A stretch of 64,000 bases of DNA from Escherichia phage DK-13: the sequence record MT611523.1; one strand, given 5' to 3'. A model generated the notes under the pieces. It was not told the origin of the DNA. It did no database searches and was given only the letters and a program-made list of their open reading frames with translations. The stretch's first letter is position 1; each line of letters starts with the position of its first letter. A program made the translations under genes and the position numbers. Positions 1-41,812 of this stretch are shown one piece after another.

Positions 1-260
1 TGTCAGGAATACCATCAGCGAAAAAATAAACCAATTGGTGCATTGTATTGCACGAAAATAATTTGGACTTGACCGCAATAAGTTCTTTCCAATGGTTTAA
101 TTCTTTGTTAAGAAGCTTATGAGCAAACGTAATTCTATCATCACTATCAACAAGAAAATAACCCAGGTATTGAATGTCGTCGCTCCAAAACACCCGGTAT
201 GCCTGTGCATTTGGATTTTTACAGCGAAGTTTTTTGATAACTAAATTTCTGTTAATCATT

Positions 261-554
261 TTATTCACCTGTAACCCATTGAACAATTTTGCTATTGTCA
301 AATGAAGCATCGCAATACAGAACATAGTTATACTGCATAACGTCACCAGAAGTCAATTTGTCAGATACTTCTTTAACCATATCAGGGCGGTCACGTTTAG
401 TTATGTTCATAATATCAGCATAAATCTGATGTTCAACATCAGTCTGGTCGGCAGTCATAGACCACTCACAAAGGTCTTTATCAAGTCCAGCAGTAACTGG
501 AGCTGTACCACATGATGCTACGGTAAGAATTGCCGCGATTAATAACTTTTTCAT
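261..554 (-). CDS. sp: Periplasmic lipoprotein, Spackle (Sp/61.3)-like superinfection exclusion protein
   Basis: 97 aa; N-terminal signal peptide with lipobox-like LTVASCG; size and position in the 61.x block downstream of gene 41 match T4 sp; preceded by an early promoter cassette. Confidence 0.45.
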   Translation of the reverse strand: MKKLLIAAILTVASCGTAPVTAGLDKDLCEWSMTADQTDVEHQIYADIMNITKRDRPDMVKEVSDKLTSGDVMQYNYVLYCDASFDNSKIVQWVTGE

Positions 555-555
555 T

Positions 556-615
556 TCAATCTCCTCAGTAGTTGATAGGGATAATATACAGCATTATCCC
601 TTTGTTGTACACTAT
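556..615 (-). promoter_or_regulatory. PeSL-like early promoter cassette (family A)
   Basis: Minus strand reads GTGTAC, then inverted repeat GGGATAAT/ATTATCCC enclosing a -10-like TATATT, then conserved leader ATCAACTACTGAGGAG before the ATG at 554. Confidence 0.5.
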
Positions 616-851
616 TTTAATGCATCTTCCAGATAAATTTTGCGGAATTTGCGTTTTGTCTGACGAATCTGACGCTTGGTAGGTTTCACAGGAAATTCGA
701 AGAACTCTACGTATTCTTGTTCATAATCATTGTGGCCGACTGAAAGAACTAGTTCCCAGCTGCTTACGGTGCGTTGGATAAACATATTATGCTTACCAAA
801 AGATTTATTCCAAAAAGAACTAGGGGTAGGTTTCATTAATGCGATATTCAT
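612..851 (-). CDS. Hypothetical protein (61.4-position small ORF)
   Basis: 79 aa ORF in tight array between sp-like and dmd-like genes; no recognisable motif. Confidence 0.45.
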   Translation of the reverse strand: MNIALMKPTPSSFWNKSFGKHNMFIQRTVSSWELVLSVGHNDYEQEYVEFFEFPVKPTKRQIRQTKRKFRKIYLEDALK

Positions 852-1055
852 TTAAATTTCCTCAATGCGGGCATCATATTCAAAAACTTTATTGTCATTA
901 ACAAAGGCTTTAACCAGCGCATTATTCACTTCTGCATACTGCACTGTAACCCATTCAATCATATTTTTGTCACTAACATCCAGCGCGGTTTCTTTGGTAA
1001 ACATATTACCGTTTTCAAACCAACCAATAAATACTACGTTCTCTAATTTATACAT
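852..1055 (-). CDS. dmd: Dmd-like protein (antitoxin against RnlA/LsoA-type RNase toxins)
   Basis: 67 aa; VVFIGWF...MFTKE...QYAEVNNALVKAF resembles T4 Dmd (61.5) as recalled from memory; located in the 61.x block near gene 41. Confidence 0.4.
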   Translation of the reverse strand: MYKLENVVFIGWFENGNMFTKETALDVSDKNMIEWVTVQYAEVNNALVKAFVNDNKVFEYDARIEEI

Positions 1056-1373
1056 TTAGATTTCCTCGCAGAAGGCCCAGGCAGCGTGATAAACTGTTGC
1101 GCCTTTAGTATCATTTAAACAAACCACGTCAACCGGTGCAATCACACGATAAAGACGGGGTTCTCCTCCATATGAGCGAGCTGCTCTTCCTGCATAGATA
1201 CGTGCCAAACCAATATCTTCAGTAAAAAACACACGCCCTAAATTTTTCTTACGCCCAACTTCTGACAGAACACCAGTTGCATCAGGAGGGCAAAGCATAT
1301 TTTGGATTCCAGCATTAGAGCTTGACCCATGATAATAAACTTTGTATTCTGCCTTGCAATCAATGGTTTTCAT
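1056..1373 (-). CDS. Hypothetical protein with YHGS motif
   Basis: 105 aa ORF immediately downstream of gene 41; contains VYYHGSSS, reminiscent of H-G-S NAD-binding motifs but too short to call. Confidence 0.45.
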   Translation of the reverse strand: MKTIDCKAEYKVYYHGSSSNAGIQNMLCPPDATGVLSEVGRKKNLGRVFFTEDIGLARIYAGRAARSYGGEPRLYRVIAPVDVVCLNDTKGATVYHAAWAFCEEI

Positions 1374-1412
1374 TTTATTCTCCAGTAGTTGATAGGGTCA
1401 TTATAACATAAG
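1374..1412 (-). promoter_or_regulatory. Early promoter / conserved leader (family A, partial)
   Basis: Minus strand TTATAATGACCCTATCAACTACTGGAG directly upstream of the ATG at 1373. Confidence 0.4.
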
Positions 1413-1436
1413 AAAAAGGGGCTGTAAGCCCCTTTT
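1413..1436 (-). terminator. Rho-independent terminator after gene 41
   Basis: Hairpin GGGGC-TGTAA-GCCCC flanked by A-run and T-run, immediately 3' of the gene 41 stop. Confidence 0.6.
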
Positions 1437-1444
1437 AAAATATT

Positions 1445-2884
1445 TTAAAATTTCATTTGAGCAGCAAGGTCGTCCAGGTCGCTCCTGTTGACCCTGGTTT
1501 GTCGATTCATTTCAGCCTGGCGATTCATCTCACCGGTGGCTTCTTTAACTGTAGGGCCTTGTTTAGGAGCCGAATCATCATCAACCTCATACCAGCGCTG
1601 ATTACCTTTCTTAACACCCATCTTGAATTTATTATAGTAGTTCTTATCACCATAACGAGACTTAAGCTGTTTGATTAACTGCAGCCCCATTTGAGCGAAT
1701 TCTTCGGTCTCAACAACACCCAACATAAAGTCAGCTGTATGAGCAATACCAAAGGATTCTGCGATGTCAGCCATATCAATCTCAGCTGCAACGTTCGCGC
1801 CCCTGGTTGTCTGCGCTGCAGTCCACAGGACCACATTTTTCTCGACTGCCAGACCACGAAGTTCTTCTGCAACCATCTTAATCAGACCGTAACTATTTTC
1901 GGTAAACGTTTTCAGTCTTGAGCTTGCACAGATTGCCAGGTAGTCAACAATAATCACATCTGGTACAAACCCTTGCTTCAGCTTGTACTCGTTCAGTAAT
2001 GCACGGAAGGTGTCCGCATGAGCACCGCCAGTTGGATATTGTTTTATCTTCAGAGTCCCAAGAGTCCCGGAAGCACGCCATTTTTCCATCTTAGCTTTAT
2101 ATTCCGCCCATGACACATGACCTTCATCAATATCATCCAGAGATACATCCAGCAAGTTGGCATCAATACGTTTGGCACATACTTCTTCAGCCATTTCCAT
2201 GCTTATATAAAGCACATTATGACCAGTCTGAAGATAGTCAGCGGCTAACGAACAAAGTCCAAGGGATTTGCCGACGTTCGTCCCGGCCAGTAAAACGTTC
2301 TCTGTACCGTACTCAACCCCACCCTTTGTGATTTTATTCAGGATGTTAATACGGAACGGAACCTTCTTCGATTTGTTCAGATAAGTCTGGAATCGAGCTT
2401 CGTAATCGTTTAACCAGTCATGGCCCAGAGCGGAGTCAAAACAGATAGACAATGCATCGCGCATGATGTCGGGGATAGCACCAATATCCGGGATTCGTTT
2501 ATCACGTTTATCTTTAGGAAGTTCGGCATTACTCTGGATTTCGATAATCCTGGATGTGGCATTGAACATCGCAGACTTCTGTACATACTTCTCGGTTTCT
2601 TTAACCAACCAGTCCTGGTCTTCTGGAGTATCGGCCAGGACTCCTAAGAGTTTCTTTGTGCCTTCATATTCGACTTCAGAAAGGTCAGAACTGTCGAGCG
2701 CGATATCAAGTGCAGTCTTAGTTGGTACCGCTTGATATTCTTTTACGTGTTCGTTAATCGTATTAAAAAGGGTCTTTGCAGGACCCTTTTCAAAATATGT
2801 GTTATTCAGATATGGCCAGACTTTAACAAAATATTCCTTGTTAAAGAGTAGCTGGGATAAAATAGTTTCTACCACTTCCACCAC
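1445..2884 (-). CDS. 41: gp41 replicative DNA helicase (DnaB-like primase-helicase)
   Basis: 479 aa; DnaB-family helicase-like sequence; size and synteny with 40 and uvsX as in T4. Confidence 0.93.
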   Translation of the reverse strand: MVEVVETILSQLLFNKEYFVKVWPYLNNTYFEKGPAKTLFNTINEHVKEYQAVPTKTALDIALDSSDLSEVEYEGTKKLLGVLADTPEDQDWLVKETEKYVQKSAMFNATSRIIEIQSNAELPKDKRDKRIPDIGAIPDIMRDALSICFDSALGHDWLNDYEARFQTYLNKSKKVPFRINILNKITKGGVEYGTENVLLAGTNVGKSLGLCSLAADYLQTGHNVLYISMEMAEEVCAKRIDANLLDVSLDDIDEGHVSWAEYKAKMEKWRASGTLGTLKIKQYPTGGAHADTFRALLNEYKLKQGFVPDVIIVDYLAICASSRLKTFTENSYGLIKMVAEELRGLAVEKNVVLWTAAQTTRGANVAAEIDMADIAESFGIAHTADFMLGVVETEEFAQMGLQLIKQLKSRYGDKNYYNKFKMGVKKGNQRWYEVDDDSAPKQGPTVKEATGEMNRQAEMNRQTRVNRSDLDDLAAQMKF

Positions 2885-3213
2885 CTCTTTTTCATTTTAA
2901 TCTTATCAATTTCATCTTGTATTTGCATTGTAACACACTTTTCTACATGCACAGCAAGCTCCGCTTTGCGGTCTTCGGAAGGGGTACCGAAATCAACTGA
3001 AACTTTTCCAGATGGTTCAATTTTAATTCCGGTTACGTACACAATGTGACTGGACCCATCAGGGAGTGATAACAGAATTTCCTGTCGTACAGTTCCCATG
3101 GATTGCCGGATAATCTCCAAACTTTTTTCGTAGTAAGGTACAGAAGGAGCCTTAGCTCCCTCCGCATCTTTCTCGAAATTATCTAAATCAGATAAATCGA
3201 TATCATTCATCAA
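2869..3213 (-). CDS. 40: gp40 head vertex assembly chaperone
   Basis: 114 aa ORF between uvsX and 41 with overlapping stop/start, matching T4 synteny and size. Confidence 0.7.
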   Translation of the reverse strand: MMNDIDLSDLDNFEKDAEGAKAPSVPYYEKSLEIIRQSMGTVRQEILLSLPDGSSHIVYVTGIKIEPSGKVSVDFGTPSEDRKAELAVHVEKCVTMQIQDEIDKIKMKKRWWKW

Positions 3214-4381
3214 GGTCTTCCATCATATCTAAATCGTTTTCGATATCTGCAGCGGACGGTTTTGTCTTACCTTCAGGAGCAGAGTATTTTTCAACCTTGG
3301 AGGCAATAAGCGCATCAACTTCGGCATCAACAACAGCATTGCTATCGATTGCACCCAGTTGGTAATGGCGTTTGATTGCATCACGGAAAGGTTCGTGTTT
3401 AAACAGCGGCCCCCAGAATTCGGTGCAGTTAGTATCTTTTGCGCGCCATGATTTTTCTTCGCGGACCATTTCCCCGGTCTCAACATCAAGATATTCACGG
3501 TTATACCAACCAACTTTTGGTTTAACCACAAATCCGATTTCTATTGCCATATCAAGCAGGCCAGAATACGGGTCAATACCACCATCGAATTTTACATCAA
3601 TGAAGAATTTACTTTTCTCTTTGACCATACGAGATTTTTCGGCGTTCAGAACAAATTGGAAGCCTTCAAGTTCTTTACCAGTTTCTTTAATCTGACGTTT
3701 ACCGATAATGAATACAGTGTCCGCGGAATACATAACACCTGTGCCACCGGTCATAACGGTTTTACTGTACATCTCAATCGTCTCGATTGTATGGTTAACC
3801 GCGACACAAGGAATATCCTTGATACTAAAATAAGGGGTAACAATACGGAACAGAGATTTCAGGGATTTAGCACGAGTCATATCGCCAACGACTTTTTCGT
3901 TCATCGCATCTTCTGTTTCTTTTTTCGACGCCATGTTACCGATTGAGTCAATAAAGATAATGACTTTTTCACCACGCTCAATTGCTTCAAGCTGGTTAAC
4001 CATATCAACTTTCAATTGTTCAACCGACTGGATTGGTGTATGGATAACACGCTCCGGGTCTACTTTCATTGCACGAAGATATGCTTCTGTGATACCAAAT
4101 TCTGAATCATAGAACAAACAGATTGCGTCGGGGTATTTGTTCATATATGCAGAGACCATCGTTAAACCCATATTGGATTTAAAGTGTTTTGACGGACCAG
4201 CAAAAATAGTCAAACCTGACTGCATACCACCATCTAGTGCACCGCTGATTGCAATGTTCAGCATCGGGATTTTTGTACGAACTACATCTTTATCATTAAA
4301 GAACTTGGACTTGGTAAGAGTCGCAGTCATTTTGGATGTAGAAGCTTTAATCAAACGGGATTTCAAATCTGCAATAGACAT
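3203..4381 (-). CDS. uvsX: UvsX RecA-like recombinase
   Basis: 392 aa, RecA/Rad51-fold sequence; T4 UvsX size and position. Confidence 0.93.
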   Translation of the reverse strand: MSIADLKSRLIKASTSKMTATLTKSKFFNDKDVVRTKIPMLNIAISGALDGGMQSGLTIFAGPSKHFKSNMGLTMVSAYMNKYPDAICLFYDSEFGITEAYLRAMKVDPERVIHTPIQSVEQLKVDMVNQLEAIERGEKVIIFIDSIGNMASKKETEDAMNEKVVGDMTRAKSLKSLFRIVTPYFSIKDIPCVAVNHTIETIEMYSKTVMTGGTGVMYSADTVFIIGKRQIKETGKELEGFQFVLNAEKSRMVKEKSKFFIDVKFDGGIDPYSGLLDMAIEIGFVVKPKVGWYNREYLDVETGEMVREEKSWRAKDTNCTEFWGPLFKHEPFRDAIKRHYQLGAIDSNAVVDAEVDALIASKVEKYSAPEGKTKPSAADIENDLDMMEDLDE

Positions 4382-19675: not shown

Positions 19676-19745
19676 GTTTTCCTCATCAGTAGTTGATGGG
19701 ATAATGATACATCATTCAAAGGGGCTTGTACACCCCTTTTTTAAT
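19676..19745 (-). promoter_or_regulatory. PeSL-like early promoter cassette (family A) with stem-loop
   Basis: Hairpin AGGGG-CTTGTACA-CCCCT containing a -35-like TGTACA, short inverted repeat AATGAT/ATCATT, conserved leader ATCAACTACTGA..GAGG. Confidence 0.5.
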
Positions 19746-35065: not shown

Positions 35066-35130
35066 TGTGTTCTCCTCAGTAGTTGATGGGATAATAGTAC
35101 ACCCTTTTTATGGTGATGTAAACCCCCTAA
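35066..35130 (-). promoter_or_regulatory. Early promoter cassette (family A)
   Basis: Minus strand GTTTAC-N18-TACTAT then conserved leader TATCCCATCAACTACTGAGGAG then ATG. Confidence 0.5.
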
Positions 35131-41755: not shown

Positions 41756-41812
41756 GTTTGTTCTCCGTAGTTGATAGGGTCATTATAACCCTATCGTTTG
41801 GAGATGTACATC
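41756..41812 (-). promoter_or_regulatory. PeSL-like early promoter cassette (family A) with stem-loop
   Basis: Inverted repeat GATAGGGT/ACCCTATC enclosing TATAAT, then leader CAACTACGGAG before the denV ATG. Confidence 0.5.

Follow-up and report, generated by a model that had tools for sequence, protein, structure and literature searches.

Dmd of bacteriophage T4 inhibits the host RNase toxins RnlA and LsoA. In T4, dmd (gene 61.5) and tifA (gene 61.4) form a two-gene operon under an early promoter, TifA is an inhibitor of the ToxN toxin, and the region that carries dmd, tifA and adfA (61.2) has been named the "anti-TA island", TA standing for toxin-antitoxin (Srikant et al. 2022, 10.1101/2022.04.14.488369). 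An enzyme has also been connected with dmd: Iyer, Burroughs, Anantharaman and Aravind predicted a phage-borne type II TA system in which Dmd is joined to a "p0068-family" ADP-ribosyltransferase (ART) from the HY-[EDQ] clade, and speculated that this system acts on RNA (Iyer et al. 2022, Viruses 14:1977, PMC9503650). Among ARTs, the closest family that we could detect by sequence is Arr, the rifampin ADP-ribosyltransferase, in which H19 and Y49 are the NAD-binding residues, D84 is the catalytic residue, and the C-terminal part bears a DPN[VL] motif as well as residues that contact rifampin, among them S99 and V140 (PMC6092378). Here we analyze the dmd locus of Escherichia phage DK-13 in a window of 64,000 nucleotides (sequence record MT611523.1). 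A dmd homolog for 67 amino acids (852-1055) is preceded there, on the minus strand, by an open reading frame (ORF) for 105 amino acids (1056-1373), whose product carries a YYHGSSS motif and is predicted to adopt an ART fold. We refer to the latter gene and its product as ART.

The coordinates and lengths of both ORFs, as well as the YYHGSSS motif (residues 13-19 of the 105-amino acid product), agree exactly with an earlier examination of the same DNA that was made from its letters alone, the sequence-only reading. That reading regarded the ORF 1056-1373 as an additional gene wedged into a conserved operon. The whole ORF product aligns with phrog_2110, a family to which no function is assigned (E=1e-58). 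A tblastn search found the gene in 609 phage records, assigned by host to Escherichia (215), Klebsiella (116), Acinetobacter (68), Aeromonas (62), Enterobacter (29), Vibrio (14) and others, with identities of 59-89% across a range from coliphages to Aeromonas phages. A profile search against 1.8 billion representatives returned 243 cluster representatives of the family at E<=1e-3. Based on these matches and on the confidently predicted fold described below, we conclude that the ORF is a real gene and not a chance reading frame. Among T4-like phages it is common as a conserved accessory gene, and it is "extra" only relative to T4; the idea of a rare insertion does not survive this count, nor is the arrangement itself new, since the ART-dmd pair was already described by Iyer et al. 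(PMC9503650). A few GenBank records label the gene "putative ADP-ribosyl transferase" or "rifampin ADP-ribosyl transferase". Scans of the protein with NCBIfam and PADLOC gave no match. Three other ORFs of the region, 865-1059 (plus strand, 64 amino acids), 1142-1234 (minus strand) and 1238-1363 (minus strand), were rejected as genes; they overlap dmd or ART antisense or out of frame and have no support.

The structure of the 105-amino acid protein was predicted with AlphaFold2 at a mean predicted local distance difference test score (pLDDT) of 85.9. Structural neighbors of this model are almost all ARTs, including PARPs, cholera- and pertussis-like toxins, DarT and RES toxins, and the modeled protein has the fold that characterizes the H-Y-[EDQ] clade of the ADP-ribosyltransferase superfamily. 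At the sequence level, neither phmmer nor a narrow T4-like family profile (A1) matched any PDB sequence, and only a broadened family profile (A2) reached Arr, matching Arr-ms (2hw2, 9iaf) at E=1.3e-4. The alignment of A2 with Arr-ms covers Arr residues 13-82 and places H15-G16-S17 on H19-G20-T21 of Arr (the His-Gly-Thr motif), E38-x-G-R41 on E40-x-G-R43, F49 on Y49 and T51 on T51. Additionally, more distant family members exceed the gathering score of the Pfam Arr-ms model PF12120 (27.5-31.5 bits against a cutoff of 25), with matches that span only model positions 1-67 of 99. The alignment and the structural model together indicate that the 105-amino acid protein is a minimal ART fold, homologous to the N-terminal NAD-binding half of Arr. 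The sequence-only reading had likened the YHGS motif to the H-G-S NAD-binding element of ART-fold enzymes and had proposed a structure prediction as a check; both the predicted structure and the alignment bear the likeness out.

The match between A2 and Arr is a sign of homology to Arr and not of membership in that family. Arr (PF12120; PDB 2hw2, 9iaf, 9iba) has 143 residues, whereas the phage protein has 105 and lacks the C-terminal part; Y49 of Arr is a phenylalanine here, D84 and the DPN motif are not conserved, and a K-K-N loop extension is specific to the phage family. We rejected the assignment of the protein to Arr proper on account of the missing C-terminal part and D84, and the window protein itself falls below the Pfam threshold. 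The assignment to the RNA 2'-phosphotransferase Tpt1 was rejected as well. Tpt1 has a separate RNA-binding N-lobe and an Arg-His-Arg-Arg catalytic tetrad. The structural match to Tpt1/KptA (PDB 9ld3, 7kw9) involves only the ART lobe, 75 of the 179 residues of the Tpt1 chain; there is no room for a second lobe in 105 amino acids, and neither phmmer nor A1 or A2 detected a Tpt1 match among PDB sequences.

We examined residue conservation over 97 representatives of the ART family. H15, G16 and Y60 are invariant; position 17 is threonine in 85 and serine in 12, E38 is present in 96, T51 in 94, and position 49 is phenylalanine in 95 and tyrosine in two. The complete set of invariant or nearly invariant positions consists of H15, G16, [TS]17, P29, P30, T33, E38, R41, K43, N44, F49, T51, A57, Y60, A61, R63, G69, G70 and G91. 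Such conservation, like the 59-89% identity kept between phages of different hosts, points to purifying selection on the gene. The invariant E38-x-G-R41-K-K-N44 motif is located in a flexible loop, and E38, between strands 1 and 2, is the sole invariant acid of the family. At the position equivalent to Arr Y49, F49 keeps the aromatic ring and loses the hydroxyl group, and the invariant Y60 follows 11 residues further on. The spacing of two tyrosines in diphtheria toxin and PARP1 matches the spacing from F49 to Y60; the diphtheria toxin counterpart of Arr Y49 is Y54, and that of the catalytic Arr D84 is E148. We propose H15-G16-S17, located on strand 1, F49-x-T51 and Y60 as the putative NAD site. 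The protein is at most a putative enzyme, because no acid is conserved at the position of Arr D84; position 84 is glutamate in 53 of the representatives but valine in the window protein. We considered E103/E104 as the catalytic glutamate and rejected this assignment, since its conservation does not extend beyond the T4-like clade (12 of the 97).

Conservation of the gene order around ART relates the locus directly to the T4 anti-TA island. The sequence-only reading, which had recognized the 67-amino acid product as Dmd-like, is confirmed in this point by the alignment with T4 Dmd (57% identity over 60 residues, BLASTP E=3e-23), by the Pfam Dmd model PF17587, which scores 74.1 bits (cutoff 27; E=1.1e-20) and is matched from position 3 to position 59 of its 60, by PHROG 2102, the Dmd family (E=1e-33), and by Dmd chains in PDB (5i8j, E=9e-22; T4 Dmd 5hy3_B, E=5e-17). 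Judged by these matches, the gene encodes a genuine Dmd, and close relatives of the phage already carry the dmd label on it. Like T4 dmd, it lies 3' of gene 41 and directly 5' of a tifA/61.4 homolog; the predicted protein is seven residues longer than T4 Dmd and ends in a RIEEI tail. The 79-amino acid product of the next gene is 45% identical to the T4 gene 61.4 product (E=1e-16). Separately, an IMG/VR copy of the locus from a VR20-like phage (L013) has a 113-amino acid ORF at 3532-3873, immediately after dmd, with the Dmd-like C-terminal motif YNALVEAFVDDKLIHKVD; this ORF may encode a second, longer Dmd paralog, which has no counterpart in the window.

On the minus strand, genes follow each other in the order uvsX, 40, 41, ART, dmd, tifA-like and sp. 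With respect to transcription, the two small ORFs thus lie downstream of gene 41, and not upstream of it as the sequence-only reading had put it. The corresponding T4 order is 41, dmd, 61.4 and sp, with dmd 58 bp after gene 41 and without an ART gene. In the window, the ART stop codon abuts the dmd start codon (TAAATG, 1053-1058) and the dmd stop codon abuts the start of the 79-amino acid ORF by the same TAAATG arrangement. By these junctions ART, dmd and tifA are tied into a three-gene cassette, within which ART and dmd are predicted to be co-transcribed and translationally coupled, as are, by translation, dmd and the tifA-like gene. The best promoter match between positions 200 and 1700 (10 of 12 consensus positions plus TG) is located just 5' of ART. 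An alignment with the upstream regions of T4, JK45 and SP18 places this site opposite the promoter-like GTTTAC ... TATAGT that precedes T4 dmd, so that in this phage the early dmd-tifA unit would begin with ART. The window and the T4 dmd-tifA operon have in common the locus, both anti-toxin genes and the position of the promoter-like site; they differ in that the window operon opens with an added enzyme gene, absent from T4, and that the early promoter accordingly lies one gene further upstream of dmd.

The ART of the window is probably a member of the p0068-like family of Iyer et al., as judged by genomic context; in both cases ART is encoded directly 5' of dmd, and the hosts of the T-even phages concerned are Escherichia, Shigella and Salmonella. 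We examined how regularly the two genes occur together. The profile A1 retrieved 66 ART loci from IMG/VR, and Dmd was scored within 3 kb of ART. It was found in 10 of these loci, each time as the very next gene, and in none of the other 56. Junctions of the TAAATG type or overlaps of 4 nt between ART and dmd are present in SP18, JK45 (4-nt overlap), ABTNLS3 and the 10 IMG/VR loci. ART directly follows gene 41 in 17 loci, eight of which have no Dmd even though their ART is 78-91% identical to that of the window; in these eight, ART is followed by a Cys-rich ORF of 46 amino acids, a lipoprotein-like ORF or a secreted protein of 188 amino acids. Seven of 11 ART-carrying GenBank loci that we inspected likewise had no Dmd nearby; they belong to phages of Klebsiella, Acinetobacter, two Aeromonas genera and Vibrio, to an Enterobacter Kanagawavirus and to an Erwinia Roskildevirus. 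The Kanagawavirus IME523 has the identical GAGGAAATCTAAATG junction, but it opens into a different small ORF. Genes 3' of ART in IMG/VR sort into 27 clusters that are unrelated to one another; in 13 loci, no ORF follows ART. Dmd, in turn, matches 797 phage records, mostly of the T4 type and mainly from phages of Escherichia, Shigella, Yersinia, Salmonella and Citrobacter, whereas ART extends beyond this range to phages of Klebsiella, Acinetobacter, Aeromonas and Vibrio. Most Dmd-carrying phages, T4 included, appear to be without ART. The distribution argues against ART and Dmd being an obligate pair, because each gene is commonly found alone and no conserved substitute partner takes the place of the other; a facultative interaction may still occur where both are present. 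The functional link to Dmd that the sequence-only reading had implied is weak for the same reason (10 of 66 IMG/VR loci paired, and dmd alone in T4).

Two of the small proteins encoded next to ART can be described further. The Cys-rich ORF is acidic, 41-46 amino acids long and has the pattern MEEFECVVCGCS...CLDCD (L010 2289-2414, Enterobacter phage IME523; L012 2178-2318, Salmonella phage ABTNLS3; L016 3318-3458). Its place within the locus varies: it directly follows ART in loci that lack dmd, and in ABTNLS3 it separates dmd from tifA. Its cysteine pattern looks like that of a zinc ribbon. In Klebsiella and Slopekvirus-type phages, ART is found in another neighborhood, where the next gene in every case overlaps it by 4 nt and encodes a conserved transmembrane protein of 55-58 amino acids (L004 2815-2991; L029, L031, L032, L035, L036 and L038-L040 of IMG/VR). 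This protein is the second most common downstream partner of ART, behind Dmd.

The domain is not confined to small stand-alone proteins. It also forms part of large phage proteins, virion-associated or polyvalent ones, in which it is combined with a portal domain plus a 2H/Acb1-like domain, with ART-PolyVal alone or together with NUDIX, with CHAP, with GNAT plus Toprim and, in one protein of 3924 amino acids, with a minor-tail/tape-measure domain. Polyvalent proteins probably enter the host along with phage DNA. A further point of comparison is AcrF11, a small phage ART-fold counter-defense enzyme that inactivates a CRISPR effector. The window protein is only 20% identical to it over 75 residues (PDB 6kyf), and the two differ in phage lineage and genomic context.

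We favor the explanation that ART is an early NAD+-dependent effector that acts on a host or defense macromolecule independently of Dmd, and given the sequence and model evidence we consider this about as probable as all other explanations combined. A role as accessory effector, as the sequence-only reading had it, is plausible. The proposal is based on the polyvalent-protein contexts, the early promoter-like site, the anti-defense hot spot and the analogy with AcrF11. According to it, the three genes would form an early cassette within a hyperplastic anti-TA island 3' of gene 41, preceded by an element of the promoter-early stem-loop (PeSL) type; the protein would bind NAD+ through H15-G16-S17, F49/T51 and Y60, and would transfer ADP-ribose to a host or defense macromolecule soon after infection, thus serving in host takeover or counter-defense. 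ART and dmd would adjoin through a shared early promoter in a hot spot for accessory genes, and Dmd would not be a cognate antitoxin. Three cues, namely the basic loop with its invariant motif, Tpt1 as the best structural match and the two operon partners that counter RNase toxins, weakly suggest RNA, another nucleic acid or a nuclease-associated factor as the target. By analogy with AcrF11, ART might even be a third counter-defense factor of the anti-TA island, one that early in infection enzymatically disables a host defense component such as an RNase toxin or other abortive-infection effector, or its RNA substrate; this more specific version is somewhat unlikely.

The published alternative is a type II TA pair in which ART is the toxin and Dmd is both its cognate antitoxin and an inhibitor of RnlA/LsoA. 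Gene order with the toxin first would resemble that of rnlA-rnlB. The stop and start codons of the two genes abut or, in JK45, overlap, and in every locus where Dmd is near ART it is the next gene. Exactly such an arrangement was predicted in phages of Escherichia, Shigella and Salmonella (PMC9503650). However, strict co-occurrence is not found: the 56 IMG/VR loci without Dmd, the eight Dmd-less loci after gene 41 with a closely similar ART, and the large number of Dmd carriers that appear to lack ART do not support an obligate relation. The junction of IME523, kept with a different small ORF, and the 27 clusters downstream of ART leave no alternative partner that is conserved. Close packing is general among early genes of T4-like phages, and a lytic phage would have no obvious need to shield its host from a toxin. 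We regard a TA pair as unlikely. It is also conceivable that ART acts on a small molecule, or hydrolyzes NAD+ or an NAD-derived immune signal. This would agree with the small-molecule specificity of Arr, the closest family detectable by sequence, and with the very small size of the protein, which has no obvious substrate-recognition domain. However, the match to Arr ends before the part with DPN[VL], S99 and V140 (PMC6092378), the catalytic aspartate of Arr is not conserved, and the domain recurs in polyvalent virion proteins beside effector domains directed at macromolecules; such an activity seems quite improbable. The loss of an invariant acid at the canonical catalytic position and the change of the canonical tyrosine to phenylalanine at position 49 could instead indicate an inactive ART fold that works as a binder, either as a sponge for NAD+ or an ADP-ribose signal or as a structural inhibitor of a host factor; small phage proteins are often sponges or stoichiometric inhibitors. 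Yet a signature of HG[ST], aromatic-x-T, Y60, E38 and R41 retained across 97 diverged representatives is more typical of an enzyme, and the family is located among enzymatic effector domains in polyvalent proteins, which makes a pure binder highly improbable.

Several observations weigh against the early-effector explanation that we favor. The representatives have no conserved acid at the Arr D84 position and no invariant acid anywhere in residues 80-105; position 82 (D82 in the window) is acidic in about 56%, and E103 is limited to the T4-like clade as stated above. The window protein matches no Pfam model, even at E<=1, and hence no Pfam ART model. Where ART and dmd co-occur, dmd always abuts or overlaps ART, as it would in a TA pair. 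Both the promoter and the terminator are predicted from consensus matches, the cues to a nucleic-acid target are weak and indirect, and a literature search yielded no experimental study of the phage ART family.

The dmd gene and its adjacency to ART are already known from the literature and from GenBank annotations. New here are the residue-level support for a relation to Arr, the anatomy of the three-gene early operon with its PeSL-like elements, and the distribution evidence against an obligate pair, which gives any test of the published TA idea a more definite starting point. The family deserves attention as a widespread and strongly conserved one that is encoded in the most familiar of the anti-toxin hot spots of T-even phages, with predicted co-transcription with homologs of two proven anti-TA factors. 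Enzymatic counter-defense would mean an AcrF11-like action on a defense component and a class of substrates new to the Arr-related ART clade. If ART neutralizes a host defense or modifies RNA, it would be a fourth type of T-even ADP-ribosyltransferase beside Alt, ModA and ModB and would provide a minimal ART scaffold of about 100 residues; otherwise, ART is one more conserved accessory gene.

Table 1. Features of the ART-dmd-tifA locus and leader copies elsewhere in the window
Feature	Position	Strand	Basis or remark
sp (spackle)	261-554	-	
Second PeSL-like element: TGTACA, 17 nt, TATATT, with hairpin AGGGATAAT...ATTATCCCT	577..611	-	Closes the cassette; followed by leader and sp
79-amino acid TifA (T4 gene 61.4) homolog, DUF7279	612..851	-	Pfam, E=9e-20
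dmd, 67-amino acid Dmd antitoxin homolog	852..1055	-	PF17587, PHROG 2102, PDB, BLASTP
ART, 105-amino acid ADP-ribosyltransferase-fold protein, Arr-related (phrog_2110)	1056..1373	-	PHROG, AlphaFold2, family profile, conservation
Conserved leader CCCTATCAACTACTGGAG with GGAG ribosome-binding site, 5' of the ATG of ART	1374..1397	-	Sequence
Promoter-like site of sigma-70/T4 early type: CTTACA, 17 nt, TG-n-TATAAT	1400..1428	-	Consensus match, just 5' of ART
G+C-rich hairpin with T-run AAAAGGGGCTTACAGCCCCTTTTT, terminator-like	1413..1436	-	Terminator scan; right after the gene 41 stop codon
Gene 41, helicase	1445-2884	-	
Gene 40	2869-3213	-	
uvsX	3203-4381	-	
Leader copies	561-580, 1378-1397, 19682-19701, 35072-35091, 41760-41779	-	Repeat count

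The window phage is, by its sequence, T4-like and of the SP18/JS98 type (Tevenvirinae, Gaprivervirus), and over bases 1-3300 it shares 97% identity with phages MN01, TH40 and SP18. PeSL elements, which combine a G+C-rich stem-loop with an early promoter of the sigma-70 type, are known from hyperplastic regions of T4-like phages (PMC2839356, PMC4122927). In the window, the hairpin after gene 41 overlaps the promoter-like site ahead of ART and forms a composite element of the PeSL type (Table 1); the architecture of stem-loop plus promoter is that of the described PeSL cassettes (Arbiol 2010, Comeau 2014), matched here at the level of consensus. A further PeSL-like element is located at about 35160-35072. 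The 15-nt leader CCCTATCAACTACTG, in the form CCCTATCAACTACTG(R)GGAG, has five minus-strand copies in the window, where none is expected. Each of the three that we read (1378-1397, 561-580 and 35072-35091) is located between a stem-loop with an early-type promoter on its 5' side and a start codon on its 3' side, as in PeSL-like cassettes. Leader copies flank the ART-dmd-tifA cassette on both sides, the copy at 561-580 being ahead of sp, and these two bracketing copies could act as recombination substrates. In Shigella phage SP18 (L001 4206-4835), two extra ORFs, one goF-like and one hypothetical, are encoded between gene 41 and the ART promoter; both are missing from positions 1374-1444 of the window, an insertion or deletion that falls exactly at the PeSL-like element.

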